A DNA stretch of 64,000 nucleotides. Source: an archaeon (lineage in GTDB: Archaea > Nanobdellota > Nanobdellia > Pacearchaeales > GW2011-AR1). A program made the translations under genes and the position numbers. The number at the start of each line of letters is the position of its first letter. The first letter of the stretch is position 1. The stretch covers positions 1-64,000 of the forward strand of contig JBDRNU010000026.1 of assembly GCA_043810775.1 (NCBI GenBank). The letters are read 5' to 3'. Below the pieces are notes generated by a model, which did not search any database, was not told where the DNA came from, and was given only the letters and a program-made list of their open reading frames with translations. Of the stretch, positions 1,555 to 48,725 are shown piece by piece.

Positions 1555-3765
1555 ATGCCAAGAAAAAGAAAAATAGCAGAAGATATGAAAGAGCCAGACT
1601 ATATACCTATGAGTCCATCAAACTTAAAGCACACTACTGAAATTACAGTCAAACATATTGACAAAAAAGCTCTTCTAACAGTGGAAAAGCAGGGAAAAAA
1701 GCCAAAGCAGGAAAAATACACACTAATAATAACAGAAAAACCACAGGCAGCTGAAAAAATAGCCCATGCACTTGGAAATCCACTAAAAATTTCAAATAAA
1801 GACAGAACAAATTATTTTGAGTTAAACAAAAACGGAAAGAAAATACTAATTACAGCCGCAGTAGGTCATCTTCTCAATCTAGAGCAGAAAAAAGGTGAAA
1901 AAGGCTGGCCAATATTCAAACTAGAATGGGTTCCAGGATATAAGAAGAAAAAAGCAGAATTCAGCAAAAAATATTACTCTCTAATAAGTAAATTATGTAA
2001 AGATGCTTCTGAATTTGTCGTAGCTACAGACTATGATGTAGAAGGGGAGGTAATTGGATTGAATATAATTAGATACATATGCAAGCAGAAAGATGCTCAA
2101 AGAATGAAATTCTCAAGCCTGACTAAAGAAGAAATTCAAAAAGCCTTCCAGAACTTACAGCCTACACTAAACTGGGGGCAGGCAATAGCCGGAGAAACTC
2201 GGCACTATCTTGACTGGCTTTACGGCATAAATCTTTCTCGTGCCCTAATGGACGCTATTAAAACAACAGGCAGTTTCAGGATAATGTCAATTGGCAGAGT
2301 TCAGGGTCCAGCCCTACATCTAATTGTTGACCGCGAGCTGAAAATCCAGAACTTCAAGCCACAAGCTTACTGGCAGGTCTATATCTCGATCTTACCAGGA
2401 AAAATAGAGCTAAAATATAATAAAGACATAACTAAAAAAGAAGAGCTTGATGAGTTCTTAAAACTAAAAGGTAAAAAAGCTCAAGCAGAAACAAAAACTT
2501 CTGATCAGGTTATAACTCCTCCAGTGCCTTTTGATTTAACAACTTTGCAAACAGAATCCTATAAATTCTTTGGAATAACTCCCTCAAAAACCTTGCAAAT
2601 CGCGCAATCATTATATCTGGCAGGTTTAATATCCTACCCAAGAACATCTAGCCAGAAAATACCAGAAGCAATTTCTCCAAGAACTATAATCAACAAGCTA
2701 TCTAAAAACTATAAAGAAGCTTCTCTATGCTCTCGAACTAAACCAATAGAAGGCAAAAAATCAGACCCTGCACACCCATCAATCTATCCAACTGGCGAGC
2801 AAGCTTCCCTAGCTGGCGAGCAAAAAAAAGTTTATGATTTAATAGTAAGAAGATTTCTTGCAGTTTTCTGTGAAGATGCAATAGTTGAAAACAAATCAAT
2901 AAGCGTAACTATAGATAATCATAAATTTTATACTAGAGGCCAGATAGTAAAGAAAAAAGGTTGGATGCAGGTGTATCAAGCCAGTATAAAAGAAAACAAG
3001 CTCCCAGATATAAATGGGGAAGTAAAAATAGATAAGGTAAGAATAGAAGAAAAAGAAACCCAGCCTCCAAAGCGCTATTCACAAGCTTCACTTATTTCAG
3101 AGCTTGAAAAGCATAACCTAGGAACCAAAGCAACTCGGGCTTCAATAATTGAGACTCTGTATGACAGGCAGTATATAAGAGAACTTTCAATTCAGGCAAC
3201 TCCTCTGGGAATGTCCCTGATTTCAACCATGAAAAAAAATGTTCCAATAATAATTGAAGAAGAGCTTACAAGGCATTTTGAAAAAGAAATGGAAATAATA
3301 CGAACAGCAAAAAAGAATCTAAATGAAAAACAAAAGCAAATCTTGCAAGAAGCTGAAAAAACTCTTACTAAAATATCTCACGATTTCAAGAAAAAAGAAA
3401 AAGCAATAGGCAAAGACTTGGTAAAGGCAACAAGCCACCTAATTAAAGACATGAAAGAACAAAACACTCTTGTCCTATGCCCTGTATGCAAAAAAGGGCA
3501 CCTTGCAATTACTTTCTCAAAGAAAACAAAGCGCCACTTTATAGCTTGTAATGCTTATCCTGAATGCAAAACCACATTTTCTCTTCCACCAGGAGGGCTG
3601 GTTAAAAAAACAGATAAAGTCTGTGACAAATGCGGATTTCCTCTCCTAATAAGGCTGATGAAAGGCAGGCGTCCCTGGATATTCTGCTTTAATCCTAATT
3701 GCGAAACTAATAAAGAGTGGCAGAAAAAGCGTGAAGAATATATGAAGAATCATAAAACTAGCTGA
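1555..3765 (+). CDS. topA: DNA topoisomerase IA
   Basis: TOPRIM motifs TEKP and ATDYDVEGE, GRVQ, catalytic ISYPRT, C-terminal Zn ribbons. Confidence 0.97.
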   Translation: MPRKRKIAEDMKEPDYIPMSPSNLKHTTEITVKHIDKKALLTVEKQGKKPKQEKYTLIITEKPQAAEKIAHALGNPLKISNKDRTNYFELNKNGKKILITAAVGHLLNLEQKKGEKGWPIFKLEWVPGYKKKKAEFSKKYYSLISKLCKDASEFVVATDYDVEGEVIGLNIIRYICKQKDAQRMKFSSLTKEEIQKAFQNLQPTLNWGQAIAGETRHYLDWLYGINLSRALMDAIKTTGSFRIMSIGRVQGPALHLIVDRELKIQNFKPQAYWQVYISILPGKIELKYNKDITKKEELDEFLKLKGKKAQAETKTSDQVITPPVPFDLTTLQTESYKFFGITPSKTLQIAQSLYLAGLISYPRTSSQKIPEAISPRTIINKLSKNYKEASLCSRTKPIEGKKSDPAHPSIYPTGEQASLAGEQKKVYDLIVRRFLAVFCEDAIVENKSISVTIDNHKFYTRGQIVKKKGWMQVYQASIKENKLPDINGEVKIDKVRIEEKETQPPKRYSQASLISELEKHNLGTKATRASIIETLYDRQYIRELSIQATPLGMSLISTMKKNVPIIIEEELTRHFEKEMEIIRTAKKNLNEKQKQILQEAEKTLTKISHDFKKKEKAIGKDLVKATSHLIKDMKEQNTLVLCPVCKKGHLAITFSKKTKRHFIACNAYPECKTTFSLPPGGLVKKTDKVCDKCGFPLLIRLMKGRRPWIFCFNPNCETNKEWQKKREEYMKNHKTS

Positions 3766-4525
3766 CACTTTTACACAAATATCTACTATGGGAATCAGGA
3801 ATTTTTCTTGCATTTTCTTCATGCTTCACCAAGTCATATTTTGAAAAATCTATGAACCCTCCTCTAATGAAAAAATCAAGCTGCCCATCTTCAATATGGG
3901 AATAATGCATAAATTTTCTCCAAGCTCGAGATATACCCGTATCATTTGAGATAATGCAAGTTTTCCCGCGTGTATTTGCAAGAACAGCTCCAGAAATTAA
4001 AACATCTATATCAGCCTCGCTTAGTTTAAATTTTTCCGGCAAATAAAAGTAAGCCTGATGATATCTATTATACATTCCTCTCTCTTTAAGTGATAAATCA
4101 AGTATTTTATTATAGGTCTGAATTGATTCTACAAGACCTCTCCTGCCTTTGCTTTCCACTTTTCTTGCCCTTGCTTCACATAATTCAGCGCCAGGGTATT
4201 CAAATTGCCCCATCTGCCTTAAAAACTTCTTGATATGAAAATAAAGTTTATGGGAAAATTCATCAAGTACTTTTTGAGTAACAAGAATATTCTCACCCTG
4301 AACAATAAGAGCTTCAAGATATTTATAAAATTGAACAGCAGAATTTAATTTTCTTGCGCTTTTATAAAAATCCTCCTCTTCAAAAAGTCTTCTCTCTCTT
4401 TCATTTTTCCCCATAGGGCAAATTAAAGCTGAAGTATCAAACAAGCACAAGCTATAATCTTGCACTAACTCATCTAAGGCTGTTTTTTCTGATTCACTTG
4501 CTGAATCCAATAAACTAACTGACAC
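3758..4525 (-). CDS. Hypothetical protein, PIN-domain-like
   Basis: FDTSAL, VLDE, LSEADID and IISND acidic motifs resemble the PIN fold; flanked by a 15-bp direct repeat. Confidence 0.55.
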   Translation of the reverse strand: MSVSLLDSASESEKTALDELVQDYSLCLFDTSALICPMGKNERERRLFEEEDFYKSARKLNSAVQFYKYLEALIVQGENILVTQKVLDEFSHKLYFHIKKFLRQMGQFEYPGAELCEARARKVESKGRRGLVESIQTYNKILDLSLKERGMYNRYHQAYFYLPEKFKLSEADIDVLISGAVLANTRGKTCIISNDTGISRAWRKFMHYSHIEDGQLDFFIRGGFIDFSKYDLVKHEENARKIPDSHSRYLCKSVS

Positions 4526-5245
4526 TCATATCCACCTCCTCTTTTTGATTCCAGAACCAGTAATATAAAAATTAAGCTCCTTTTCTGCCATGCTCCTGTG
4601 CTTCTTAAGTATAGCTTTCCTGTTTTTTCCTTCCTGCTTTAGCTCAATTATACACTTGCTCCAGTATTTTAGCAAGTCTCCTCCAACCATTCTTGCTTCA
4701 GGCTTCTTGCCAGCTCTAAAATCTTCATCAGATAAAAACTCAGAATAAGTCTGATTAGTAGCAATAATTGGAATTAGCTTATTTCTTGATATTTCAGCTA
4801 AAGTTCTCAGCTGTCTTGCTAGCTGAGAATTTATCTCCTTAACTTTCATCTCATCTTCCTTGCAATTAGCCAGTTCCAGCCTGTATAGCATAGTCATGCC
4901 ATCTACAACTATCAACCCAACACCCTTAATTTCTTTTAGCATTTTCTCAAATGCTTTTTCCTGCTCATCAAAAGTCACTGGCTTTAGCAATAAGATATTT
5001 TTCAGGGCTTTTTCATACTCTTCCCCAGTTACTTGCTTAAACCTGTCAAGCGAAAATCCTCCCTCACTATCGATAAAAATAACCTTCTTATCTTTTTTAG
5101 CCATGCTGCTGGCAGCTAGAACACAAAAATTAGTTTTCCCAGAGCCAGCTGGCCCATAAATAGTAGTTATAATGTCCTTTTCATATCCGCCATAAAGCCA
5201 CTTATTCAAGTCAAAACTTCCAGCTGAAATCCTGTCAGTTCTCAT
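4526..5245 (-). CDS. radB: DNA repair and recombination protein RadB
   Basis: Short RecA-fold ATPase: GPAGSGKT, IDSEGG, TNQ, KHRS basic patch. Confidence 0.93.
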   Translation of the reverse strand: MRTDRISAGSFDLNKWLYGGYEKDIITTIYGPAGSGKTNFCVLAASSMAKKDKKVIFIDSEGGFSLDRFKQVTGEEYEKALKNILLLKPVTFDEQEKAFEKMLKEIKGVGLIVVDGMTMLYRLELANCKEDEMKVKEINSQLARQLRTLAEISRNKLIPIIATNQTYSEFLSDEDFRAGKKPEARMVGGDLLKYWSKCIIELKQEGKNRKAILKKHRSMAEKELNFYITGSGIKKRRWI

Positions 5246-11163: not shown

Positions 11164-11673
11164 ATGAAAAAAATGGGGAAAATATTAATTCCAATAACCA
11201 TATTACTCATAATAATACTCAGTTTACTCATAATTAGGGCTTTTTCAGAAAAACAGCTTGATGATGTCTCTCCAACAGTTACTTGCTCTCCTGAACTGCT
11301 TGAAAAAGCAGATGTTCTTTATATTATCCCCAGCTATAAAAACCAAAATATTTCATCTAATCAAGAATGGTGCCGCTCTATTCTCTTGCTAAATAAAAAA
11401 CTTGCTCTTCACGGAGTTTATCATACTTACAAGGAATTTTCAACTGACAGAAGCAAGGAATATCTTGAAAAAGGAATAAAAGAATTTGAAAACTGTTTTA
11501 ATCTCAAGCCAGAAGAATTTAAATCACCCCAGCTAGCCACCTCAATCACTAATAAAAAACTAATAAAAAATAATAATTTAAAGCTAAATGGGATAGCTAA
11601 TCAAATTTTCCATAAAGTCTATCACTGCGATAATTCTGGAACTTTTCCTAATTGGCTTATGAACTGGATTTAG
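11164..11673 (+). CDS. Exported polysaccharide-deacetylase-like protein (DUF2334-like)
   Basis: N-terminal TM, LDDV.P, LHGVYH metal-binding motif, F..P. Confidence 0.7.
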   Translation: MKKMGKILIPITILLIIILSLLIIRAFSEKQLDDVSPTVTCSPELLEKADVLYIIPSYKNQNISSNQEWCRSILLLNKKLALHGVYHTYKEFSTDRSKEYLEKGIKEFENCFNLKPEEFKSPQLATSITNKKLIKNNNLKLNGIANQIFHKVYHCDNSGTFPNWLMNWI

Positions 11674-12238: not shown

Positions 12239-12288
12239 AGAAAACTATTAAAATAATAATTCTTAAACTTTTCTAATTTAAAGCTTCC

Positions 12289-12516: not shown

Positions 12517-12578
12517 TTTAAATCTCCATAACACCTCTTTAATACAATAATTTCTAATGCTTTTTAAATTTTCCTGAA

Positions 12579-13661: not shown

Positions 13662-13662
13662 G

Positions 13663-38168: not shown

Positions 38169-38179
38169 AATCAAAAAAT

Positions 38180-38620
38180 ATGATAAACCTAGCTAAGATA
38201 ATTAAGCAAAAATTCCACAATGACTGCGGGCCTGCAGCTCTTGCTACAGTTTTCTGCTATTACAATAAATGCCAGGACTATCCAGAACTGCTAAAAAAAT
38301 CTGAGCTGTCAAAAGGTACAGATAATCCAAAAATGAAGGAAATGGCTGAAGAAATCGGCTTCAAGACATTTACTAAAGAAAATTCCTCTCTCGAAGACAT
38401 TAAAAATTATCTTGCAAGAAATATTCCAGTAATTATAAACTATATTGAACCAGAGCTAAACTGGGGGCACTATGCAATAATAACTAATATTAATGACAAG
38501 ATAACTCTTGCCAATCCAGATACAGGCAAGCAGGAAAAAATGGAAATCAGCGAATTTGAAAAAAGATGGATTTCAGGTTCAGGCAAGTACAAGCGCTGGA
38601 TGCTGGCTGTCTTTAATTAA
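38180..38620 (+). CDS. Peptidase C39-like protein
   Basis: Q....DCGPAAL, GHY, ANP. Confidence 0.85.
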   Translation: MINLAKIIKQKFHNDCGPAALATVFCYYNKCQDYPELLKKSELSKGTDNPKMKEMAEEIGFKTFTKENSSLEDIKNYLARNIPVIINYIEPELNWGHYAIITNINDKITLANPDTGKQEKMEISEFEKRWISGSGKYKRWMLAVFN

Positions 38621-38636
38621 ATCAATCAAAATAGAA

Positions 38637-39017
38637 TTATCCTGTCTTAGCAATAAAAAGCTCCACTAACGAGCCCCTGTCTACAAGCTCTTCAGCATAC
38701 TTCCTGACTTCCTCTATTCCCGCTTCATCACCTTCATTAACCATATCCATAACAGTCATAGCGCATTTCTTTGTATCATGAAACATAGCTAACTTGCCTG
38801 TTTCGTTTAGTAAGTGTTCTTCAAGCTTAAAAATAGTACCATTTGTTGAATCAAAAAGTGCAAACTCCCCTTGCCCCTTAAAAACAGGAGCAACACTCAA
38901 ATATGTCTGCAAAATAGTGCCTAATAAAGGAGAATAATCAACACCAGAAATACTTATATTCCTTTTAATGTCATCTTCTATATGAGATTTAACATAATCA
39001 ACATTTGCATTTGGCAT
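38637..39017 (-). CDS. Hypothetical protein (ORFan)
   Basis: 126 aa with its own promoter. Confidence 0.6.
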   Translation of the reverse strand: MPNANVDYVKSHIEDDIKRNISISGVDYSPLLGTILQTYLSVAPVFKGQGEFALFDSTNGTIFKLEEHLLNETGKLAMFHDTKKCAMTVMDMVNEGDEAGIEEVRKYAEELVDRGSLVELFIAKTG

Positions 39018-39056
39018 TTTAAAGCTATAATCATTATATTCTTAAATGTTTCTATT

Positions 39057-39578
39057 TTATTTAATAAAAAACCACAGATAAAATACATTCATAATAGTAT
39101 ACCCTAAAGTAATCACCAATGTTAATATAAAAATCTTTGAAGATTCTGGGATAATAAAACCTAACAAGATTAGAATAATTGCATAGATGATAAAATAAAC
39201 TTTAATGTATTTTTTCAATTTATTGAGATTCTCATTTTTAAGACAAAAAATTCTTGGCATCATAAAAACAGCTGCCCAAAAGCTAAACATTCCTATCTGA
39301 TTCGCATCAAGATTCAACCAAGGAGCGTTTCCAAGTAAAAACCATTCAAACATCAATCCAAAAGTGCTTGCAATAATGTAATAAAGAATTTCTGAGTAAG
39401 GTTTCCTAATTTTATTTATGATTTTGCCTAAGAAATAAGCAAAAGTTAAAAGAGTAAAATATATTATAAATGTAAAAAGATATGAATTAATATTTTTTAA
39501 AATAAGTATATTTAAAACAAATTCTGCAACTGTGGCGAATAGTATTCCTATAATAATAAACTTAAAAAATTTGTTCAT
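39057..39578 (-). CDS. Multi-pass membrane protein
   Basis: About 6 TM segments. Confidence 0.7.
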   Translation of the reverse strand: MNKFFKFIIIGILFATVAEFVLNILILKNINSYLFTFIIYFTLLTFAYFLGKIINKIRKPYSEILYYIIASTFGLMFEWFLLGNAPWLNLDANQIGMFSFWAAVFMMPRIFCLKNENLNKLKKYIKVYFIIYAIILILLGFIIPESSKIFILTLVITLGYTIMNVFYLWFFIK

Positions 39579-39654
39579 TTTGAAATCCTCACCATATCTA
39601 AATCATCAACTAACTGACTTTTCTTAAACTTTTCGGTTAATTTTTTGTCTTTAA

Positions 39655-40611
39655 TTAAACTAAAAAATTCTCCTTATTAGTGACTATTCTTTTTCCAAAG
39701 CTCAAAATAGCTATCTTCCTAAGAGTATTGGGAAATTTCTGCTTCATTAGTTCAAGCTCTTCCTGCAGTTGCGAAATGCTGGGATAAACAAAATCTACTT
39801 CATAATCCCACAAGCCCAGCATCTTAGTAATATATCTCACATTTTTATTAGACATAATATAATTCTCAAATTCACTGGTTTTTTTTAAGTTCTGCACCTG
39901 AAATAATAACTTAAAAGTATTATACTTAAATTTTCTCAAGTCCAAAGTTAAAAAATATCCAGTTATCACTCCATCCTTTTCCAGCTCCCTCATTCTGGCA
40001 GAAACAGTCTTTGGTGAAAGATGGGTTTCCTTTGCAATATCTACAACATTCATTCTAGGATTATATCTAAGAACAAGAAGAATTTTTTTATCAGTATCAT
40101 TCAAGGAAATTTTCTTGCCTTTTTTGAAAATCTCATACATATTATGAATGGGCTTTTCATGAATAAAACTATGCCTAAAATAAACCTGTTTAAAAATTAT
40201 CTGCATATCCTTCTGATTTATCTTGCCTGCAAACTTCCTATTAAACTCACTTTCCTGAAAAATTAAATCATCAAAATTATTTACTAGAAAGCAAACACAT
40301 AAGTCATAAATCCCATAAAATCTTGCAGCCCATAAAATATTCTTATACTTTTTAACCTCCCTAATCACTTCATTCTCTGTCTGCTCGTCATAAAAATCAA
40401 AAGTATAATACACCTTCACCATAGTATATCCTAAAATCTCATTATTCAGGCCAGTGGCATTGTGAAGCATGTACTCTTTTAGTTTTTCAAATCTTAATGC
40501 AACAGAATTTTTAGAAAGCCTAACCTTTTTCCCAATTTTAGAAAAACTTTGTCTAAAATTAATATCAATCTCCTTTAGTATGGCATAATCCTTTGCATCT
40601 AACTTCTCCAT
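39655..40611 (-). CDS. Tandem (double) Lrp/AsnC-family transcriptional regulator
   Basis: Two HTH plus RAM modules (LDAKDYAIL...GIYD; LNDTDKKIL...GLWD). Confidence 0.88.
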   Translation of the reverse strand: MEKLDAKDYAILKEIDINFRQSFSKIGKKVRLSKNSVALRFEKLKEYMLHNATGLNNEILGYTMVKVYYTFDFYDEQTENEVIREVKKYKNILWAARFYGIYDLCVCFLVNNFDDLIFQESEFNRKFAGKINQKDMQIIFKQVYFRHSFIHEKPIHNMYEIFKKGKKISLNDTDKKILLVLRYNPRMNVVDIAKETHLSPKTVSARMRELEKDGVITGYFLTLDLRKFKYNTFKLLFQVQNLKKTSEFENYIMSNKNVRYITKMLGLWDYEVDFVYPSISQLQEELELMKQKFPNTLRKIAILSFGKRIVTNKENFLV

Positions 40612-40812
40612 AAAAACAAATGCACTCTTAAATATAAAAATCTTTGTCTTTTATAATAAGACACAAAATACTATCACCCACTAAAAAATACTTATCTGTC
40701 ACAGATATATAAGATATGATCATACTTTAACCCATTAATTAACTGCGAAACTTCCAGTATGTCATAAAATTCAACCATGCTAGTTTAAGTAAGATTATTC
40801 AGTAAAAAGTAT

Positions 40813-41958
40813 ATGCACAATTCAACTTCTTCACTGTCTGTAAAAGAACTTGAAAACCTGTTAACAGAAGGTAGATTTCCAATTACTCCAAAATCTGAGC
40901 AAAAAAAATTTATAAGAGACCCAATAAGTAGAGACATTGTAGTATTTTGCCCAGAAAGAGACCAAATTCCAGCTAATATAACAGAGCTTCAAACAACTCT
41001 GGCTCAAACTAAAGATAAATCTCAAAGCTGCAGAATCTGCGAAGGAAAAACAACAAAGATTGAAGGTGTAAAAAGAACTGGTCAAGATACTTTTACATTT
41101 TATAATAAAAACCCATTCCCAGCACTAAGTCGAACTGGAATTGAAAATATCCTTCCAGATTCTTCAGAACCAACAAAAAAACTCGTGGGTGAAAACTATT
41201 TATTATGGGTATCTAATGAGCATAAAGATATCCACCAACTATCTCATAAAGAGCATCAGGCCTGTTTTGAACTGCTTGCAGAACTTGAAGGAGAACTCCA
41301 CGGAACCGGATTTGTTTATATTTTTAAAAACACTGGAGCAGAAGCAGGAGCCTCTCAAGAACACGGGCACTATCAAATAGAATTTCTGAATACTCTTCCA
41401 AGAATAATTGAAGAAAACAAAAAATTTGCAATGACATTTAATAAATCAAGAGTAGCTCACTGGCTAGACTCAACACCCAAAGAACTCGAAGTTAAAGATT
41501 ATGAAAATGCAAGAATAATAATCCCTCCATTTATGAAAACACCTTGGAGAGCTATAATTCTTGCAAAAACAAATCATCCTGATAAAATGCTTAATCTAAG
41601 AGGTTGTATGGAGGATGGAGGCATACAAGACCTTGCCGCAGCTACTTCTGATATGGCTTATGCCCTAAGTCTGCTAATGCCTGCTCGGGGTTTTCCACTT
41701 TCTTATAAGCTCATTTTCCACACACAGCACACCCACCTGGGAAGAACAGGCCAGATGTATATAGAAGTTATACCTCTTCTGCAAAAAATGGGAGGGTCAG
41801 AAGAAGGAGGAGTTTATTTTCCCAAAGATTCCCCTCAAAAAGCATCAGAAAGATACCGAAGATGTTTTGATAATTATATCTTTGGAAGAGAAGAAGATTC
41901 CAGCCAGCCCTCTTCCAATGAAGTATTTAAAAATTGTATAGCCCCACTATTAAACTAA
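40813..41958 (+). CDS. GalT-like (HIT-superfamily) nucleotidyltransferase
   Basis: RDP....V...P.R, C..C, NPFPAL, FKN.G..AGAS..HGH.Q. Confidence 0.8.
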   Translation: MHNSTSSLSVKELENLLTEGRFPITPKSEQKKFIRDPISRDIVVFCPERDQIPANITELQTTLAQTKDKSQSCRICEGKTTKIEGVKRTGQDTFTFYNKNPFPALSRTGIENILPDSSEPTKKLVGENYLLWVSNEHKDIHQLSHKEHQACFELLAELEGELHGTGFVYIFKNTGAEAGASQEHGHYQIEFLNTLPRIIEENKKFAMTFNKSRVAHWLDSTPKELEVKDYENARIIIPPFMKTPWRAIILAKTNHPDKMLNLRGCMEDGGIQDLAAATSDMAYALSLLMPARGFPLSYKLIFHTQHTHLGRTGQMYIEVIPLLQKMGGSEEGGVYFPKDSPQKASERYRRCFDNYIFGREEDSSQPSSNEVFKNCIAPLLN

Positions 41959-41968
41959 AAGAAGTAAA

Positions 41969-42634
41969 TTACTTATTGAAAATTTCTTCCCTGACTTTCT
42001 TTCCGTATTTATGGGCAAGAACAATTGGTTCAGGAAGCTTATGTGGCTTGACTATATATTTCTTAGTGAATTCAATCGCACTCTTTAAGCTTACTAAATT
42101 TCCAGGGCTGACATAAATAGGCTTGCTTCCTTCCTTACTGACTAAAACCTTTCCAACTTCCTTGCCATCTAATAAAACACTTTCACCTTTTTCCTCACCT
42201 ATGACCAAATTATCAGCAACACCAATTGCAGGAGATCCAGTAGCAATCGAAAAATGACTTGCTAATCCTAATCTCACATGAGCAGTACCATGCCCATGAA
42301 TAAACATAATTTCTGGCTTCACTTCAAGCTTATCATAACAAGATACCATTGAAGGTAGCTCTCTATAAGCCCTAAATCCTGAGATATAAGGGAATTTAAG
42401 TTTGTCTGAAAAATACTCCTGAGCAACAATCTCTCCATCCCTATCTACCACAACAATAGCAGAAATTATCTTATTCTCAAAAAAAATATTATCGCATCCA
42501 CCTACTAATTCTACTTCAGAAAAATCTCGAGAATCCTTAATACTCAAAGTCTTCGCTAGCTTAATCTGCTCATCCTCCAGTTTTTTCAAATTAATATTAT
42601 ACTTTTCAGCTACATCTTCAGGTTTCATGTTCAC
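41969..42634 (-). CDS. nfi: Endonuclease V-like protein
   Basis: PYISGF.AYRE.P, GLASH, PIYVSPG, LPEP; the usual DGxG motif reads HGHG. Confidence 0.85.
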   Translation of the reverse strand: MNMKPEDVAEKYNINLKKLEDEQIKLAKTLSIKDSRDFSEVELVGGCDNIFFENKIISAIVVVDRDGEIVAQEYFSDKLKFPYISGFRAYRELPSMVSCYDKLEVKPEIMFIHGHGTAHVRLGLASHFSIATGSPAIGVADNLVIGEEKGESVLLDGKEVGKVLVSKEGSKPIYVSPGNLVSLKSAIEFTKKYIVKPHKLPEPIVLAHKYGKKVREEIFNK

Positions 42635-42747
42635 GCTCTTTACAAAATATATACAAAGGTATTTAAACTTAAATATATAATAAAATATTAATTAAAAATC
42701 TTTCTCTAATCCAAGGGAAGGAACGTGAGTGTCTTAATTAAGATAAA

Positions 42748-43446
42748 ATGTCAATATTTAGTAAAAAATGCGGAAGATGCAATAAAGAATTAGCCAAGAA
42801 TTTTGAGTTCTGCCCATTTTGCGGAGCTAATCTTAGAAAACAAAAAGAAGAACAAAACTTCGGACTGCTCGGAAGAGAAGATAACTTCTTCGATATGAAT
42901 ATGGTCAGAATGCCTTTTGGATTTAACAAGCTATTTAACTCACTAGTCAAAGAGCTGGATAAACAGTTTAAAGAACTAGACAAAGAAATGACCCACGAAA
43001 TAAAGGAAAAGAAAGTGAAAAAACCTCAGCAGTTTCCTAATAATTCTGGGATTAGCATAAAAATATCAACTTCAACTGGCAAGCAGCCAGAAATAAATAT
43101 TTCTGGATTTGGTCCAGAGTTTGAAAAAATTAAAGATGATATTGAGGAAAAGCCGGTCATAAGAGCACATATTACAGATGAACAAGCCAAAAAATACTCT
43201 AAACTTCCAAAAAAAGAAGCCATGACTAAGGTTCGCAGGCTTAGCAACAAAATAGTTTATGAAATTACCTTGCCCGGAGTAAAATCCCTAAAAGAAGTAA
43301 TAATTAATAAACTTGAAAATAGTATTGAAATAAAAGCATTTAGCAAAGACTCTGCGTATTTCAAACTCCTTCCTGTAAATCTTCCTCTTGTTGATTATAA
43401 ATTACAAGATGAAAAACTAATTTTAGAATTGCAAACTAATCAATAA
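42748..43446 (+). CDS. Zn-ribbon plus HSP20-like domain protein
   Basis: CGRC...CPFCG; C-terminal LPGVK, SIEIKA alpha-crystallin-like region. Confidence 0.75.
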   Translation: MSIFSKKCGRCNKELAKNFEFCPFCGANLRKQKEEQNFGLLGREDNFFDMNMVRMPFGFNKLFNSLVKELDKQFKELDKEMTHEIKEKKVKKPQQFPNNSGISIKISTSTGKQPEINISGFGPEFEKIKDDIEEKPVIRAHITDEQAKKYSKLPKKEAMTKVRRLSNKIVYEITLPGVKSLKEVIINKLENSIEIKAFSKDSAYFKLLPVNLPLVDYKLQDEKLILELQTNQ

Positions 43447-43449
43447 AAA

Positions 43450-43956
43450 TCAATTATTAATTCTAGAACCTGATAATATCTTCTCTGTTTTATCTAGTTC
43501 GCCTCTAAATTGTTCAGGAGTATAAATCTGCCTTTCATCATCAAAAATATAGCTTATTTCTCCATCTAGCTTCAATGAATCATATAATCCTTTTGTTGCA
43601 CTAAGCACCTCTCTTGCCAGTTTACTATCACAAAAACTCGCATGGCTTCCACTGCTCACTTCAGCAACTAAAAAAAGATCTTTGCCTTTTAAATAATCTG
43701 GAAGAGTTTCTAAATCTAAATTTCCCCATTGCCATAAACCAACTAATTCATCAGGCACATCAATAAAAGGCTGTTCTCTGCAAAGTAGTCTCCCATCACC
43801 TTTTGAAAACTTAGTCCACCCCTCTCTCTTGTCATAAAAGCAATTAAAAGCTGGATAAATACTTCTTAATAGTTCAGAAACACTGCTTCTTACATTAGCA
43901 AAATCTATTTCAGTTTCACCAACAGCTAAAATCTTTCCTTGCAATGAATGGCTCAT
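43450..43956 (-). CDS. Hypothetical protein (ORFan)
   Basis: 168 aa; flanked by an 11-bp direct repeat. Confidence 0.6.
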   Translation of the reverse strand: MSHSLQGKILAVGETEIDFANVRSSVSELLRSIYPAFNCFYDKREGWTKFSKGDGRLLCREQPFIDVPDELVGLWQWGNLDLETLPDYLKGKDLFLVAEVSSGSHASFCDSKLAREVLSATKGLYDSLKLDGEISYIFDDERQIYTPEQFRGELDKTEKILSGSRINN

Positions 43957-44003
43957 CCTGGTTTAAACAAGTAAACAGTTTATAAGAATTATTATACTTG
44001 AAC

Positions 44004-44768
44004 TCAATAAAAATATTTCAAAGCTTCTTCAATACTTCCAACCTCTATGACTTGGACTCCAGTTTCTTCAGTAAGATTGACTTTTCTTGGCTTAGTTTCA
44101 GTAGTGCACAGCTCACTAGTGCCAAAAGTCTCGCAAGAATCTTCAGATTCATACACTATATCTCTGCTTTGTAATAAAGGAACTAAAAAAGTCTTAGCAC
44201 CAGCATCTCCTGCAGCTTTTGCCTTTGCAAGTATCTCTGAAACAGGACCTATGCTTCCATCCCTATTTATAGTTCCAGTAATCATTACATCCTCCCTTAC
44301 ACTCTTGCCTTCGATAGCAGCAATAGTTGCAATTGCCAGTGCCGCTCCTGCACTCGGCCCACCAATAATACTCGCATTTGCCTTTATAGAATAAATTAAA
44401 TCATAATTATTTACATCTTCTTCAGAAAGTTCTCCTGCAACTAACCTGGCTATTCTTATGCTATGCTGAGTATCTGCCCAAAAAAGAAGATTATCTATAT
44501 CAGTAAGAGTTCTCCCGCTTCCAGGCATTGCCTCAACAAAAAGAACAGTGCTAACACCATTACCATCAGAATCAACAGCAGGAAGCATCATACTCAGTAA
44601 AGTTAAATCCCCTTCCTGAATAAAAACAGGCTCAAACTTGCCTTCATTTTCAATATTTAATTCACTAGGGCTATAAATCACTAAAAGAAGCTCCAAGACA
44701 ATTAAAATAAAAACTATAGCTAGCAAATACCTCCAAAAATAATTCTTAGTGACGCTCTTTTTAACCAT
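44004..44768 (-). CDS. Membrane-anchored Lon-like (S16) serine protease domain
   Basis: GPSAG, ITGTI..DG.IGPV, catalytic Lys; N-terminal TM. Confidence 0.88.
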   Translation of the reverse strand: MVKKSVTKNYFWRYLLAIVFILIVLELLLVIYSPSELNIENEGKFEPVFIQEGDLTLLSMMLPAVDSDGNGVSTVLFVEAMPGSGRTLTDIDNLLFWADTQHSIRIARLVAGELSEEDVNNYDLIYSIKANASIIGGPSAGAALAIATIAAIEGKSVREDVMITGTINRDGSIGPVSEILAKAKAAGDAGAKTFLVPLLQSRDIVYESEDSCETFGTSELCTTETKPRKVNLTEETGVQVIEVGSIEEALKYFY

Positions 44769-44776
44769 TTCTGATA

Positions 44777-45847
44777 TTATTGAAAAACCTCAATCTTATC
44801 AGACAAAAAACCTTTAATAAGTTTTGCCTTTTTATCGTCAATTCCATCAAGTCTCACAAGCTCGCTAGTGTCAGAATAAAGAATTCGTTTTAATTCCTTA
44901 AAATTACTAATTAATAAATCAATCTCATTTTTATTAAGGGGAGATTTAGAAAGCAGCCTATAACCTAAAGGGCCAAAATTAATCTTACCTTCATCTTGCC
45001 CATTATTTCTGGAGTAATTGTCTATTATTTTTTTAGACTGCTCAAATGTGGGAGTCTTTAAAGATTTAATTTTCCTAATTACATCATCTGTACGAAAGTA
45101 GCGGTCATAATCTTTCTTTAGATTATTAATTTCCTCCTTTAAACCACTAGTCACAATATTATACCTCGCTTTAAGAGTCTCTCCATACTTGCCAAGCTCC
45201 CCAATATAAATTGAACTCATTTCACAATCTCTAAAAAATAAAATTAATCTATTAATAATTTGAGCTAAATCACTAACACTGACTAAAGAAGAAACTTCAA
45301 GCAAATCAAACTTCTTTAAGTACATATTTAACTCCACCCTCTGCCCTTCCAAGTTTTCTACAACTTCTCTAGCCTTATATAAAAGTTCACTTAAATCACT
45401 AAGTACATGCCTCTGATTTCCATAATATACTGAAATCAAAGAAGATTTTTCTGAAACAGAAATAACAATAGTGCCAAGTTGTTTGGCAGCTCTCTCAGCA
45501 GCCTTGTGCCTAGTGCCTGTCTCCTCACTTTTAATCTTAGAGTCAGGAATAAGCAAAGCATTGGCATATAAAATCTTCTTAAGTTTTGAGTCAACAATTA
45601 TTGCACCATCCATCTTAGCTAGCTCAGCAAGCTTGTTTGAAGTAAATCTAGAATTAATTGCAAAACCTCCATCAGCAATATCTTTTGCAGACTCAGATAA
45701 GACAATTAAAGCCCCCCTATTAGATTTGGAAATTCTCTCTAAAGCTTCCCTAAGCTCACTACCATAAGAAAAAAGCTTCAGGACATCAGCCAGATGATAG
45801 TCTTCCATAATCTTATTTTCAACCAGTTTTTTTTGAGCAGTTTCCAT
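44777..45847 (-). CDS. disA: DisA-like diadenylate cyclase
   Basis: ELAKMDGA, ETGTRHKAAER, helical linker, PLGYRLL, C-terminal HhH. Confidence 0.88.
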   Translation of the reverse strand: METAQKKLVENKIMEDYHLADVLKLFSYGSELREALERISKSNRGALIVLSESAKDIADGGFAINSRFTSNKLAELAKMDGAIIVDSKLKKILYANALLIPDSKIKSEETGTRHKAAERAAKQLGTIVISVSEKSSLISVYYGNQRHVLSDLSELLYKAREVVENLEGQRVELNMYLKKFDLLEVSSLVSVSDLAQIINRLILFFRDCEMSSIYIGELGKYGETLKARYNIVTSGLKEEINNLKKDYDRYFRTDDVIRKIKSLKTPTFEQSKKIIDNYSRNNGQDEGKINFGPLGYRLLSKSPLNKNEIDLLISNFKELKRILYSDTSELVRLDGIDDKKAKLIKGFLSDKIEVFQ

Positions 45848-46005
45848 CTTAACCTCTTTTGTTCACAAAAGATAAACCTTGCCAATATTTATAATTTTCT
45901 CTTATGACAAGTTCAAATTAATTGAAATAGATTTTTTACTTTTAAACCTTTGTTACCACTTAAAGAATTAGAAATGTTAGATGTTAGGGCGTTGATGAAA
46001 ATCAA

Positions 46006-46305
46006 TTACTTATTTCTCTTTTTATACATATCAGTCCATTCTTCACTCAAAGGCCATCCTTCAAATTTTTCACAAGGAAAAAGCTCACAATCTTTTGAAC
46101 AAACTTCAAGCTTTTTCTTAACACAACATTCTAAAACAGGGCAACCAACTCCTTCTTTATTTAATTTATCTACTGCCTCTTGTGTTTTTGTGCAACCTTT
46201 ACAAATACCTTTTACATGAAGACCACAAGTTGTGCAACAAATCCCACAACACCCCACTAAAAGAGCCTTATCTTGTTTAGGATTTTGCTGTTCCATATTA
46301 CTCAA
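46006..46305 (-). CDS. Cys-rich small protein (DUF3795-like)
   Basis: CCG.CC..C, C.GC, C....CC, C..C..FPC. Confidence 0.75.
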   Translation of the reverse strand: MSNMEQQNPKQDKALLVGCCGICCTTCGLHVKGICKGCTKTQEAVDKLNKEGVGCPVLECCVKKKLEVCSKDCELFPCEKFEGWPLSEEWTDMYKKRNK

Positions 46306-46393
46306 TTAAAATTAAAGTTTATAGACTTTCCGTTCAAACTTCCCGCTTCACCTCCAAAAATAAAAATTCTCGTTCAAATCCAAAAGGCGAACC

Positions 46394-46543
46394 ATTAACT
46401 AACTCTATGCAGGAAGTTAATGTGGTGAGGTAATATCTTACATCAGTAAGATTTAGTCTCGCCTCTTCAGAATTCCTTTGAATTCTGAGAGTCGTCAAGA
46501 ATCTTTGATTCTTGAGATTTGCCAAGCTTTTTAAAGCTTGACT
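46394..46543. repeat. Dispersed hairpin element copy C (long form with two extra hairpins) abutting the tRNA-Ile 3' end
   Basis: Near-identical to copy B, plus tcagaattc-cttt-gaattctga (46467-46488) and tcaagaatc-ttt-gattcttga (46495-46515). Confidence 0.9.
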
Positions 46544-46544
46544 A

Positions 46545-46632
46545 TGAGCCTGCACGGATTTGAACCGTGGACCCCTGCCTGTCTGAGTTTACATATCAGA
46601 GCAGTGCTCTAACCTGGCTGAGCTACAGGCTC
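46545..46632 (-). tRNA. tRNA-Ile(GAU) with a 13-nt intron at 37/38
   Basis: GAGCCTG/CAGGCTC acceptor stem; CTGCT-CTGATA[TGTAAACTCAGAC]A-GGCAG; intron TCAG pairs with CTGA (BHB-type helix). Confidence 0.9.
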
Positions 46633-46745
46633 ATAAGTCTGTAGAAAGCATAAACTCTCAAACTACTACAGGCTCATAAAGAAACAACTTTTCTACCATT
46701 TAAAATACTTACGATTATAGAAAAGTAAAAAAATAAAAGAAAAAG

Positions 46746-47084
46746 TTAGCTAGATTGAATAACTAACTTGATTCCAGTCACTAAAGCCCAAACCCAAGCT
46801 ACAGCTATAATCAAAGCTCCAAGATAAAAAACTACTATTAAAACAAAAGCTCCAATAATAGTAAGCACGAGTTGCCAAATTCCTGCCTTAACTTTTCCCC
46901 CCACCAAGCTTCCAACTCCTGGAATTAAAATATTCAGTATCAAAGCAACCACTGCTAAAAGCAAGTCACCCCCTCCCTTCTTTAAAACAACTGGCTGAGG
47001 TAATTTCCTTGGCGCAGCTTTTTTTGCAGCCCGAGATTTCTTCGCTCTAGTCGCTGATTTTTTAGATTTTTTCTTTGCAGGCAT
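46746..47084 (-). CDS. Lys-rich N-tail membrane protein, Stum/SPEC3-like
   Basis: Start MPAKKK; ILNILIPGVGS...GIWQL...AWVWA pattern. Confidence 0.65.
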   Translation of the reverse strand: MPAKKKSKKSATRAKKSRAAKKAAPRKLPQPVVLKKGGGDLLLAVVALILNILIPGVGSLVGGKVKAGIWQLVLTIIGAFVLIVVFYLGALIIAVAWVWALVTGIKLVIQSS

Positions 47085-47183
47085 CCTACCATTTACCTCC
47101 TTTTTATATCTTATAATACCATCAAACATTTATAAAGCTTCGTAAGGTTTAAAAAACACCTTTTACATCAATCTTAAAGAAAA

Positions 47184-47744
47184 ATGGCAAAAAAAGCGTA
47201 TGATTTTATAAAAGAAAACTTAAGGGTAGGTTTAAGGGAAAAAATGATAGCCTGGCGAGCTGGAGATTCTATAACAAGAATAGACAAGCCAACTGATATA
47301 GGTAGGGCTAGAAATCTTGGATATAAAGCTAAAAAAGGATTTGCAATAGTGCGGATAAAACTAAGAAGAGGTGGCCATAAAAGGTCTCGTCCTAATAAAG
47401 GAAGAAGGTCAAAAAGGCTCTCAATTAGAAAAAATCTAAAAATGAATTATCAATGGATTGCTGAACAAAGAGCAGCTAAAAAATTTAGCAACCTGGAAGT
47501 TTTAAATTCATACAAAATCGGAAAAGATGGAATGCACTACTTTTTTGAAATTATAATGATAGATCCGTCTAGACCAGAAATAAAAGCAGACAAAAACCTT
47601 TCATGGATATCCAAGCCTGCTAACACAAAACGTGTATTTCGTGGACTTACTTCAGCTGGCAAAAAATCCAGGGGTTTGAGAAGCAAGTCTCGCAATCTAA
47701 AAGTCAGGCCAAGCCTAACCGCCTGGGGCCATAAAGGCAAGTAA
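47184..47744 (+). CDS. rpl15e: 50S ribosomal protein L15e
   Basis: ARNLGYKAKKG, NLEVLNSY, RGLTSAGKKSRGL. Confidence 0.97.
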   Translation: MAKKAYDFIKENLRVGLREKMIAWRAGDSITRIDKPTDIGRARNLGYKAKKGFAIVRIKLRRGGHKRSRPNKGRRSKRLSIRKNLKMNYQWIAEQRAAKKFSNLEVLNSYKIGKDGMHYFFEIIMIDPSRPEIKADKNLSWISKPANTKRVFRGLTSAGKKSRGLRSKSRNLKVRPSLTAWGHKGK

Positions 47745-47792
47745 ATTCTAGAATATACAAATTATTTTAAATATAAGTTTCTAAAAAATAAA

Positions 47793-48254
47793 ATGACAGA
47801 TTTTACTCAACTAAAAAGATATTCTTCCTGGAGAGGCATAAAAAGTTTTCAAGACATAAAAAACCTGTATTATTCAAAACAAGCCAGAAGACATGCATAT
47901 AGTTTTAATTTTGATGAAGCTGTAAAATATGTTTCAAAAACTTCACCCCCAGAATTTCAAGAACAACTAACTCTCGCCATTTTACTTGGAGTTTCAGTAA
48001 GGACAATTATGATACAAAGAGGAAAACCAGGAGATAATGCACTTTTATTTAAAATTATGAGGAATAAAGAAGATTATGACAGAGATACAGAACTAGCAGG
48101 AAATTCTAGCCCTGAAAGAATTACACTGCATGTAGATAAGGATTTTGCAGAAATTCAGGGAATTGAAAAAATAGTAAGCAAAGTTATCCCCCTAGATAAT
48201 CCTTTGCTTCAGCACTATCAAAGATTAAAAGAGAAAAGTGGGCAAGTAAAATAA
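47793..48254 (+). CDS. Hypothetical protein (ORFan)
   Basis: 153 aa; its upstream region is duplicated downstream. Confidence 0.6.
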   Translation: MTDFTQLKRYSSWRGIKSFQDIKNLYYSKQARRHAYSFNFDEAVKYVSKTSPPEFQEQLTLAILLGVSVRTIMIQRGKPGDNALLFKIMRNKEDYDRDTELAGNSSPERITLHVDKDFAEIQGIEKIVSKVIPLDNPLLQHYQRLKEKSGQVK

Positions 48255-48302
48255 ATTCTACAATACACAAATTATTATAAAGCAGAAAAAAGTAAAATAA
48301 AA

Positions 48303-48725
48303 ATGACAGCATTGAAGCCAGGAAAATTATATAATATAACAGGCAAACGAAGAATTATACATTATAGGGAAGAAGATTGTTACAATTACATAATCAATGG
48401 TTGCTTGTATGTAAGAGAAGAAGAATTAAACTGTGAAGTCACAGAAAATACTGGAAAATGGAATGTATTCTTTCATCCAAATCCTATTCAAAGGCTAAGA
48501 TTTCAGCCTCACTCACTAATTTCACAAGATTCCAATATTCTAACAGTTCGCGAATTCGTGGAAAGAGATTTAATGACAGACAACACCACTGGAAAATACA
48601 ACTTTGAAAATCCTGAAATAATCTCCTTCCTTAAAGAATCAAGAAAACTCGCTGAAAATTTGCAAGAACCAAGAGAAAAATCTAGATTCCTAAGAGCACT
48701 AGACACACTTTTAGGTAAGCCTTAA
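48303..48725 (+). CDS. Hypothetical protein (ORFan)
   Basis: 140 aa; shares upstream sequence with 47793-48254. Confidence 0.6.
   Translation: MTALKPGKLYNITGKRRIIHYREEDCYNYIINGCLYVREEELNCEVTENTGKWNVFFHPNPIQRLRFQPHSLISQDSNILTVREFVERDLMTDNTTGKYNFENPEIISFLKESRKLAENLQEPREKSRFLRALDTLLGKP

Follow-up and report, generated by a model that had tools for sequence, protein, structure and literature searches.

Results

The window analysed here, a 64,000-nt stretch of DNA from a tiny uncultured archaeon (contig JBDRNU010000026.1, positions 1 to 64,000), carries eight pairs of direct repeats at its gene junctions, numbered 1 to 8 by position. All eight were found where the original prediction had placed them and, as it had stated, no sequence is common to them. 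Among the nine ORFs that they bracket, eight have no Pfam family and the remaining one matches HTH_38 only; searches of NCBIfam gave nothing at the curated cut-off, and those of PHROGs gave weak matches only (best E 0.00049). To this extent the bracketed genes are ORFans as claimed, with the exception of the gene in pair 1, which has a syntenic orthologue in the comparison genome described next.

The genome holding the window (G000) was compared with a genome of the same genus (G001, hereafter the relative; median amino-acid identity 69%). Repeats were scored without gaps (+1 per match, -2 per mismatch) between flanks that extended 90 nt outwards from the bracketed genes and 25 nt into them, for every 1- and 2-gene span of the window (145 tests), a range wide enough for all eight pairs, and the null was formed by 6414 orientation-matched mismatched flank pairs. 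On this null the 145 spans should yield 44 pairs by chance at a score of 9, 18 at 10, 7.4 at 11, 2.9 at 12 and 0.63 at 14. It is useful to know that, where junctions are A/T-rich, a flanking repeat as short as 9-12 nt is by itself uninformative. Over all the spans tested, the window yields eight matches scoring at least 12 (2.9 expected) and four scoring at least 14 (0.63 expected).

Four of the eight repeats were set aside. Pair 1 is a 14/15 repeat at 3755-3769 and 4512-4526 (minus strand) around ORF 3758-4525 (255 aa), with a score of 12 (p=0.02). The orthologue of this ORF in the relative (C19 3494-4186, 34% identity) likewise lies between topoisomerase and RadA-like genes, and the right repeat copy sits in the N-terminus of the ORF, a part unconserved there; an insertion scar is rejected, as the gene was already at the site in the common ancestor of the two genomes. 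Pair 3, a 16/19 repeat at 21785-21803 and 22837-22855 (minus strand), surrounds ORF 21845-22798 (317 aa), which is a real accessory gene: it is missing from the relative, where its neighbours are 69 nt apart. Homology to the relative breaks off 13 nt before the left copy is reached and restarts about 55 nt beyond the right one, so that both copies fall inside the missing segment, and the relative has no copy at all. This repeat includes a near-palindrome, AATCAnnTGATT, which recurs intergenically at C12 357, C12 1728, C22 161 and C22 983, and its score of 10 is at chance level (p=0.12). On these grounds a target duplication is rejected for pair 3.

Pair 4 is an exact 9-mer (9/9) at 25376-25384 and 25593-25601 (minus strand) around a zinc-ribbon-like ORF of 71 aa (25381-25596). 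It too is at chance level (score 9, p=0.30), in keeping with the caution, already voiced in the original prediction, that the shortest repeats are individually weak in AT-rich DNA; the same slot in the relative is filled differently, by a 134-aa ORF. Pair 5 is a gapped A/T-rich match of 22 against 19 nt with a 3-nt indel (31631-31652 and 34374-34392, minus strand), whose copies precede two co-oriented large genes (29074-31617 and 31650-34364), 9-13 nt ahead of the start codon in each. Its longest ungapped stretch is 10 nt (score 10, p=0.12), no paralogy was detectable between the two large proteins, and the contig of the relative stops at this locus, so that no empty site is available; pair 5 is at chance level or may reflect a shared leader.

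The best-supported case of the set is pair 7, an exact 11-mer, TCAATAAAAAT (11/11), at 43440-43450 and 44004-44014 (minus strand), around a promoter and ORF 43450-43956 (168 aa, orf168). In the relative the two neighbours of this insert are convergent and overlap by 7 nt, and a single copy, TCAGTAAAAAT, carries both of their stop codons. The two copies in the window are identical and differ from that of the relative by one base, and a Lon-like gene finishes within the right copy, which supplies its conserved YFY* end. Among 150 other genomes of the order orf168 is present in one (36% identity). The score of this pair is 11 (p=0.05; 7.4 expected in the window), and we regard it as the strongest example of a target duplication.

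Pairs 2 and 6 are exact 14-mers (14/14), each with a score of 14 (p=0.0044), and both are likely target duplications; in each, one copy lies within the coding end of a neighbour, the other is noncoding, and the stop codons are in register. Pair 2 (20182-20195 and 20621-20634, minus strand) surrounds a promoter and ORF 20193-20570 (125 aa, orf125). Its left copy lies within the conserved coding end of the NAC gene, whose C-terminus, AILSLS*, is identical in the relative; its right copy is noncoding apart from the stop codon of a DUF998 gene, and the stop codons of that gene and of orf125 stand at equal offset within the two copies. No homologue of orf125 was found but itself, and there is no empty site for this pair because the DUF998 gene was found in only one of 40 relatives, and weakly. 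Pair 6 (38608-38621 and 39646-39659, minus strand) surrounds ORFs 38637-39017 and 39057-39578, with the stop codon of a C39 peptidase gene in its left copy and that of an Lrp-type gene in its right copy; with the copies collapsed into one, these stop codons would form an overlapping TTAA. The Lrp orthologue of the relative overlaps a convergent gene by 4 nt, and since this gene is a different one from that in the window, the locus does not provide an empty site. For pairs 2, 6 and 8 no empty site was found in any genome searched.

Pair 8 is a real duplication, nested within a two-ORF insert. Its core is a 27/30 repeat at 47742-47771 and 48252-48281 (plus strand) around ORF 47793-48254 (153 aa, orf153), and with a 4-nt indel it reaches about 66 nt (47734..48309), from the end of the L15e gene, GGCAAGTAA, through the start ATGACAG. 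It scores 21 (p=0.0003) and occurs in exactly two copies in the genome, which makes it a genome-unique pair. In the second copy the L15e end lies out of frame inside the 3' end of orf153. All 48 nt of the spacer are included in the copy, and a TATA-like box stands 21 nt from each of the two start codons; in the relative the L15e and ligase genes are 49 nt apart and the L15e end is the same, AAAGGCAAGTAA. Around the complete two-ORF insert there is no flanking repeat (best score 7), its orf153 and orf140 show no similarity to each other, and orf153 has no homologue but itself.

The original prediction had also stated that, in several cases, deleting an insert together with one repeat restores tightly joined neighbours. 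This was borne out against a real empty site for pair 7 only, is geometrically consistent for pairs 2 and 6, and fails for pair 3. Its further statement that the inserts have no terminal inverted repeats stands for the four supported inserts (pairs 2, 6, 7 and 8). Searches of Pfam, NCBIfam and PHROGs found no transposase or integrase in the inserts, and neither G000 nor G001 contains donor copies of them.

A sharper test came from comparing the stop-codon contexts of adjacent co-oriented genes at the same offset. In G000, 12 of 730 gene pairs had an in-register score of at least 14, against 0.09 expected, and seven of these 12 fall outside a tandem array on C11; in G001, six of 666 scored at least 12 (0.45 expected). 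At low scores the excess comes in part from consensus sequences, TAAAATG for example, that operon junctions have in common. For one in-register pair, C2 12787/13281, the relative has a weaker counterpart at the orthologous locus, a hint that this pair is maintained or functional and not a recent scar. The test finds real scars at almost zero background and is usable across many genomes.

Similar sites on other contigs include an MFS-like gene between exact 19-mers (C3 70095-71294), in which the final five codons of the conserved gene upstream are duplicated together with its stop, an exact 24-mer pair (C8 9146-9844), and a 16-nt promoter piece with two copies in G000 and one in G001 (C2 37099-37947). 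Several of the genome-wide pairs are promoter-like or span start regions. Across G000, 39 repeats scored at least 14 against 9.3 expected, an excess for which tandem paralogue arrays account in part. Genes with such flanks lacked a homologue in the relative in 11 of 16 cases, compared with 416 of 1082 overall (Fisher p=0.013), with the 16 not being independent because at least six belong to the C11 array.

Within the window, a further exact 14-mer, absent from the earlier list, lies at 46623-46636 and 46666-46679 (minus strand). It copies the first bases of a tRNA gene (46544-46633), and the copies are 29 nt apart, giving the gene-end-duplication geometry seen elsewhere with a tiny insert.

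The proposal that such events are a general gene-capture route, explaining the interspersed ORFans of this genome, did not hold up. Comparison of the two genomes identified 52 and 47 lineage-specific gene indels beside 300 conserved adjacencies. The mean flank score of these 99 indels was 7.99, against 8.05 for mismatched flanks, with three scoring at least 12 (2.0 expected) and one at least 14 (0.4 expected), and their flanks showed no excess over those of 348 conserved genes (mean 7.24 vs 7.58; one-sided Mann-Whitney p=0.99). Among 29 indels with a tight empty site (gap of at most 15 nt), an in-register repeat of at least 10 nt was found in pair 7 only. The enrichment that the prediction called for is therefore absent from the 99 indels, in a test that is weak for old insertions because the relative is so distant. 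The single copy that it expected at empty sites was seen for pair 7 and for C2 37099-37947, and not for pair 3. Insertion with variable target duplications describes a minority, namely pairs 2, 6, 7 and 8 and sites on other contigs, and not the other four of the eight pairs; it is an occasional event, leaving roughly a dozen recognisable scars per megabase.

Discussion

On balance, we regard the eight pairs as a mixture of chance matches (pairs 3, 4 and 5), a conserved gene (pair 1) and real junction duplications (pairs 2, 6, 7 and 8), and the duplications are best read as insertion with long target duplication in an archaeal variant with shorter repeats. We infer that the events were probably insertions rather than deletions, and that they proceeded independently of a recombinase. 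A small segment of 0.4-1.0 kb, consisting of a promoter and one or two ORFs and having neither inverted ends nor a recombinase, would enter where two genes abut or overlap, and 11 to ~66 bp of the target would be copied during insertion, so that both neighbours would retain stop codons. The most likely means would be a staggered break that is then filled in, or a switch of template during replication by which the target stretch is copied again; integration of a circle through short homology would be the next most likely. Selection may retain an insertion only if it rebuilds the ends of both genes, and this would account for the stop codons within the repeats. Against a firm polarity, the L15e/ligase and Zn-ribbon/Lon slots hold different genes in different genera, so that turnover goes in both directions.

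It is quite unlikely that all eight pairs are chance matches among many A/T-rich junctions, carrying no insertion signature. Such matches are plentiful at scores of 9 to 12, as the expected 44, 18, 7.4 and 2.9 pairs attest, and accessory genes defined by genome comparison show no repeat enrichment; against this stand the p value of pair 8 (0.0003), the four pairs scoring at least 14 where 0.63 are expected, the 12 in-register stop-context matches where 0.09 are expected, and the empty site of pair 7, with both stop codons on one copy. Chance has largely been refuted for pairs 2, 6, 7 and 8, and stands for pairs 3, 4 and 5. We give little credence to local copying between adjacent genes, whether by gene conversion or by tandem duplication of part of a promoter, leader or 3'-end signal, with the copies then retained as functional and without any foreign insertion. 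It would suit the copying in pair 8 of a whole 48-nt spacer with its equidistant TATA-like box, the promoter-like or start-spanning pairs elsewhere in the genome and the counterpart of C2 12787/13281 in the relative, but it leaves unaccounted for the coding ends of neighbours copied into noncoding DNA (pairs 2, 6 and 7), the out-of-frame L15e end inside orf153 and the absence of the bracketed genes from the relative.

Duplication of a gene 3' end is the classical geometry of site-specific integrative elements, and the repeats could be att sites of 3'-end-targeting tyrosine-recombinase elements now reduced by decay to one or two cargo genes, or else mobilised in trans (CIME-like). We find this improbable, despite a tyrosine recombinase gene at 739-1551 and the duplication of a tRNA 5' end as well: every repeat differs in sequence and length, the inserts of 0.4-1.0 kb contain no recombinase remnant detectable with Pfam, NCBIfam or PHROGs, and the repeats are exact or nearly so, leaving little time for an att-flanked element to decay. 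The recombinase itself looks, from its Pfam matches only, like a housekeeping Xer-type gene. Highly improbable is the reverse order of events, in which the repeats came first and relatives lost the gene by slippage or illegitimate recombination, making the single-copy site a deletion product. Deletion between short direct repeats yields the same three-sequence pattern, and the genomes of this group are small and their slots show turnover; however, an 11-14 nt repeat would have had to arise by chance exactly on the stop codons of both neighbours, the copies of pair 7 are identical to each other and differ from that of the relative, and orf168, orf125 and orf153 have next to no counterparts in other genomes.

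Insertion with long target duplication, the process to which we tentatively assign pairs 2, 6, 7 and 8, is known but unexplained, and was reportedly first described in Helicobacter pylori by Nobusato et al. in 2000. Insertion sequences, MITEs and casposons also duplicate their target directly on both sides of the inserted DNA, but a given family makes duplications of one fixed length, has inverted repeats at its termini and is moved by a transposase or casposase. Their transposition is rejected here, as the supported inserts show no such repeats and no such enzyme among their Pfam, NCBIfam and PHROGs matches, and their duplications vary from 11 to ~66 bp. Integrative elements, and integrase-less att-flanked islands (CIMEs), that target the 3' ends of tRNA or protein genes likewise leave their DNA between two copies of a gene end and restore the gene, but the present inserts measure only 0.4-1.0 kb, have no integrase in or beside them and share no repeat core. 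Integron cassettes are promoterless single-gene or small ORF units added singly, and have been reported in archaeal MAGs too. They resemble our inserts in being small ORF units in slots of changing cargo, but the inserts are scattered between core genes rather than gathered in an IntI-linked array, and no attC-like hairpin or inverted repeat was found after the inserted ORFs.

The closest parallel is the insertion of restriction-modification genes with long, variable target duplications (Furuta, Abe & Kobayashi, 2010; PMC2853133), a report that credits the first description to work on Helicobacter pylori (its reference 37). As that report describes its cases, they share with ours inserts of the size of genes that have no transposase, integrase or inverted ends, direct repeats on both sides that are genome-unique (here pair 8) and differ from case to case, and, according to its Figure 3 legend, repeats that overlap the 3' end of a flanking gene. 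In its cases the repeat also aligns with one copy in an insert-free genome; here this was seen for pair 7 and C2 37099-37947 and not for pair 3, and pairs 2, 5, 6 and 8 offer no empty site. Its criterion for a duplication is more than 30 bp, whereas ours are mostly 11-24 bp with one of 30 to ~66 bp; pairs 7, 2 and 6 are below it at 11, 14 and 14 bp, and the core of pair 8 is 30 bp (27/30). The report further concerns restriction-modification cargo in bacteria compared within species, with no archaeal system passing the selection it describes, whereas our inserts carry ORFs without a family, in an archaeal host whose sole relative stands at 69% median protein identity.

Ultra-small archaeal genomes, of which the present type is about 91% coding by our own ORF calls, have many lineage-specific genes wedged between conserved ones. 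A far-reaching extension, which we consider doubtful, is that a recurrent, recombinase-free pathway in DPANN archaea inserts foreign or new DNA exactly at gene boundaries, the inserts ranging from pieces of ~30 nt through hairpin elements of 100 nt up to blocks of several kilobases. It would re-copy 10-70 bp of target, rebuild the gene ends and be a main entry route for lineage-specific genes in these very compact genomes, with most scars too old to be recognised by comparison with the one relative at hand. If insertion with target duplication is true for even a minority of these genes, it would offer compact genomes a way of gaining genes that is both simple and general and that needs no mobile-element enzyme, and would extend a poorly understood bacterial phenomenon to archaea.

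Repeat pairs and the genes they bracket

The genome under study (G000) is an assembly of 995,483 bases in 26 contigs with about 33% G+C, in which simple longest-ORF calling yields 1134 genes and a coding density of 91%. The window is on contig C26, and its gene content is archaeal, including TBP, MCM, L15e, eRF1, Sec61-beta, NAC, and an RNA polymerase L-like subunit. Eight direct-repeat pairs bracketing ORFs (cases 1–8, running from 3755-3769/4512-4526 to 47742-47771/48252-48281) are each present where the original prediction placed them, with identities of 14/15, 14/14, 16/19, 9/9, 22 versus 19 nt with an indel, 14/14, 11/11, and 27/30, respectively. As a set of insertion marks they stand only in part: roughly half of them are noise or features of another kind, while the rest are genuine junction duplications.

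The bracketed ORFs had been described as ORFans, and eight of the nine indeed have no Pfam family, the ninth matching only HTH_38, but the case 1 gene also exists in G001, the same-genus comparison genome. None matches NCBIfam at the curated cut-off, and matches to PHROGs are weak (best E 0.00049). Within the sensitivity of the search tool, orf153 (case 8) and orf125 (case 2) matched only themselves in a large protein collection, and orf168 (case 7) has a homologue, at 36% identity, in one of 150 other genomes of the order; this homologue adjoins a gene sharing a 28-nt, 79%-identical stretch, and a search for a flanking repeat at that locus found none. Queried with the ORFs of cases 2, 3, 6, 7, and 8, BLASTP against G000 identified no paralogues, and the gene pairs of cases 5 and 8 show no tandem paralogy. 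The case 5 neighbour, an 847-aa repeat-rich protein, gave patchy matches and no synteny information. Searches with ten inserts against G000 and G001 (blastn with word size 9, and blastx) found no donor locus, returning only promoter-like matches of 23–50 nt and one known paralogue. Composition gave no sign of a foreign origin, as insert G+C is ordinary (9th to 58th percentile of genes).

Chance level of flanking repeats

Each one- or two-gene span was scored for the best ungapped direct repeat (+1 match, −2 mismatch) between its two flanks, taken as 90 nt outside plus 25 nt inside so as to accommodate all eight pairs (145 tests in the window), and compared with a null of 6414 pairs in which flanks from different genes were matched for strand context. 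The null tail probabilities are 0.30 at a score of 9, 0.12 at 10, 0.051 at 11, 0.020 at 12, 0.0044 at 14, and 0.0003 at 21. Chance alone yields 18–44 pairs in the window like that of case 4 (score 9) or those of cases 3 and 5 (score 10). The repeat length alone is not significant for case 7 (score 11) or case 1 (score 12); cases 2 and 6 (score 14) and case 8 (score 21) are above chance. The tail as a whole is in excess, both in the window (8 versus 2.9 expected at scores of at least 12, and 4 versus 0.63 at 14 or more) and in the genome (39 versus 9.3 expected at 14 or more). Many of the genome-wide top pairs, however, lie in a tandem paralogue array with conserved start regions on contig C11, and unique pairs number about 20.

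The array itself (G000 C11 9959-16321 and 17471-20580) consists of genes of about 200–280 aa that are absent from G001 and joined by stop/start overlaps. Their start regions are nearly identical over 30–46 nt, and much of the genome-wide repeat excess comes from here.

A G001 homologue is missing for 35 of the 65 genes with a flank score of at least 11 (p=0.007) and for 11 of the 16 scoring at least 14, versus 416 of 1082 overall (Fisher p=0.013, a test overstated because at least six of the 16 belong to the C11 array). The direction of this link between high flank score and accessory status agrees with insertion.

Flanking repeats at gene indels

G001 is the closest genome compared (L15e 70% identical), with 595 reciprocal best hits to G000 at a median identity of 69% and long synteny with the window. 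Between adjacent orthologues, extra genes occur at 52 sites in G000 and 47 in G001, alongside 300 conserved adjacencies. If a general capture route had supplied the interspersed ORFans, as originally proposed, repeats should be stronger at accessory than at core genes. The 99 indels have a mean score of 7.24, versus 7.58 for 348 conserved genes with conserved neighbours (one-sided Mann-Whitney p=0.99), and score no higher than mismatched flanks (p=0.56). With wider flanks the mean is 7.99 versus 8.05 in the null, with scores of at least 12 in 3 (2.0 expected) and at least 14 in 1 (0.4 expected). As the indels match the controls, flanking repeats are not general to this genome's accessory genes, and a general capture route is not shown; at the distance of G001 any but a recent insertion would have lost its scar, so that the test bounds only recognisable scars. 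Among 29 events with a tight empty site, that is, a junction without the insert and with a gap of at most 15 nt, case 7 alone has an in-register repeat of at least 10 nt.

The same comparison revealed three other differences in the window. The methionyl-tRNA synthetase at 25598-27030 reads as two ORFs, of 335 aa and 153 aa, that overlap by 37 nt, against a single 475-aa ORF in G001, which could reflect a frameshift, a sequencing error, or a genuine split. A class I aminoacyl-tRNA synthetase at 13663-15984, fully syntenic, shares only 37% identity with the corresponding G001 protein, against 66–86% for its neighbours, and a distant homologue may have taken the place of the original gene. A methyltransferase gene and eRF1 (11657-13676) are in swapped order relative to G001 C19 11787-13814 in otherwise conserved synteny, a small local rearrangement.

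Junctions examined case by case

The prediction that an empty site should hold a single repeat copy is matched exactly at case 7. The insert is absent from G001, where the neighbouring genes overlap by 7 nt at ...CAAGC-TCAGTAAAAAT-ATTTAAGAGC..., and one 11-mer holds the stop codons of both the Lon-like gene (TCA) and the Zn-ribbon gene (TAA). In G000, TCAATAAAAAT stands on either side of a 553-bp segment carrying orf168 and a TATA-like upstream region.

The exact 14-mers of cases 2 and 6 occupy junctions that were once convergent. One copy in case 2 is the coding end of NAC, whose protein end is identical in G001 though the DNA differs; the other is noncoding save for the stop codon of a DUF998 gene, and the stop of orf125 falls on the corresponding triplet of its own copy. 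With only one copy, the C39 peptidase and Lrp-type genes of case 6 would have a TTAA stop overlap. No empty site for either was found in the genomes searched, and because the DUF998 gene is nearly unique to G000, relatives offer no NAC/DUF998 junction to look up.

In case 8, both orf153 and the second ORF of the insert, orf140, are missing from G001, where 49 nt separate L15e from the ligase gene. The repeat is the region upstream of both inserted ORFs: each spacer is 48 nt long, 21 nt separate the end of the repeat from the ATG, and each ORF begins ATGACAG. The duplication is genuine, but it is not a scar of the insertion between L15e and ligase. The second copy also holds GGCAAGTAA, which encodes the conserved C-terminal residues of L15e and here lies, out of frame, in the end of orf153. 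The arrangement reads as an insertion of orf153 after L15e and before a pre-existing orf140, during which about 66 bp of the target were copied.

At case 3 the prediction fails: the gene is absent from G001 and its neighbours lie 69 nt apart, but G001 has no copy of the repeat, and both copies are therefore inside the indel. Homology with G001 runs up to a stop codon that precedes the left copy by 13 nt and restarts at a promoter about 55 nt past the right copy. The repeat contains a near-palindrome, AATCAnnTGATT (window 21792-21805), that recurs in intergenic DNA at G000 C12 357-370 and 1728-1741 and C22 161-174 and 983-996. It lies upstream of promoter-like sequences, often followed by a T run, and could be an operator-like site. 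Elsewhere, the case 1 gene occupies the same site in G001 at 34% identity, the slots of cases 2 and 4 are filled there by other small ORFs, and the loci of cases 5 and 6 fall at a contig end or in broken synteny.

In-register duplications at stop codons

Because several copies had stop codons at the same offset, an in-register test was devised, in which the stop-codon contexts of adjacent co-oriented genes were aligned at offset zero and set against a background of about 40,000 random gene pairs. Among 730 pairs in G000, scores of at least 10 occurred in 24 (3.0 expected), at least 12 in 14 (0.5), and at least 14 in 12 (0.09); among 666 pairs in G001, 6 scored at least 12 (0.45 expected). Start-codon contexts gave a weaker excess (in G000, 4 at 14 or more versus 0.48 expected). 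Scores of 10–13 partly reflect a shared operon-junction consensus such as TAAAATG. The 12 strong pairs in G000 comprise five from the C11 array and seven others, namely case 2, case 8, C6 10168/9266, C2 12787/13281, C3 69636/70095, C1 4286/6942, and C2 4472/5039.

The gene at C3 70095, an MFS-like gene of 399 aa absent from G001, ends with the MKKEV-stop 19-mer of the conserved gene upstream; in G001 the orthologous end of the upstream gene is recognisable and a different gene fills the slot. At C8 9146, an exact 24-mer spans a stop/start overlap before an inserted gene, and its second copy, after the gene, is a dead start. A 16-nt promoter piece at C2 37099 has two copies in G000 and one in G001. 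Against a simple scar reading, the orthologous locus in G001 shows a weaker counterpart of the C2 12787/13281 pair.

Two further duplications were seen. The strongest in-register stop-context match in G001 (score 52) is a junction stretch of about 50–60 nt, comprising gene end, spacer, and start codon, before two consecutive genes at G001 C3 14034-15616. In the window, an exact 14-mer at 46623-46636 takes in the first bases of a minus-strand tRNA gene (46544-46633) and has a second copy 43 nt further upstream, at 46666-46679, with the two separated by 29 nt; the region of this second copy shows partial complementarity to the 3′ end of the tRNA, and the layout resembles the duplication of a gene end around a very small insert.

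Turnover of the same slots among relatives

Elsewhere in the family, the L15e/ligase slot (window 47745-48764; loci L002-L012) measures about 370–1030 nt in five other genera and is either longer than 1.5 kb or undefined in four. The ORFs within it are unrelated to one another and include putative rubrerythrin-like, superoxide-reductase-like, and membrane proteins. The convergent Zn-ribbon/Lon-like junction (window 43447-44003; loci L167-L181) ranges from the overlap in G001 to about 1300 nt, and the intervening DNA in relatives does not match orf168. Since slot contents differ across lineages, the same junctions take different cargo, and with such turnover the polarity of insertion and loss is unreadable from one relative.

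Closer empty sites were sought in metagenomes. The DisA-like protein encoded at 44777-45847 identified 80 loci in metagenome contigs, of which none (best 43% identity) was close enough for the comparison. Four public sequencing runs carry parts of 41000-50000; over 31000-50000 their contigs represent the same strain only as pieces of 150–440 nt at a depth of 2–4, and the joints listed in run contigs were discarded, having come from low-likeness matches to other organisms.

Possible routes of insertion

The proposal of a gene-capture route is supported as far as the junction duplications go, if not as a general one, and its account of the inserts holds in two respects: they have no inverted ends, and the repeats share neither sequence nor length. 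No recombinase or transposase genes were found in the inserts (Pfam, NCBIfam, PHROGs), and an inverted-repeat scan of the window found no element linking them. Bacterial restriction-modification genes inserted with long, variable target duplication and without other mobile elements have been described by Furuta, Abe and Kobayashi (PMC2853133), whose screen had no archaeal case. By analogy, the inserts agree with insertion of this type. The present duplications differ in being mostly below the 30-bp criterion and in carrying ORFs of no known function instead of restriction-modification genes. In the titles and abstract openings of the papers listed by literature searches, we found no report of this signature in DPANN archaea.

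Such scars would be left by a staggered break of variable width followed by fill-in, by a template switch returning upstream of its departure point, or by a circle integrated through short homology, and sequence alone does not choose among the three. Selection for intact neighbours would account for the stop codons within the repeats wherever genes overlapped. The real pairs are junction duplications of a type already described but still without an explanation, seen here in an archaeon, with shorter repeats and with ORFans as cargo.
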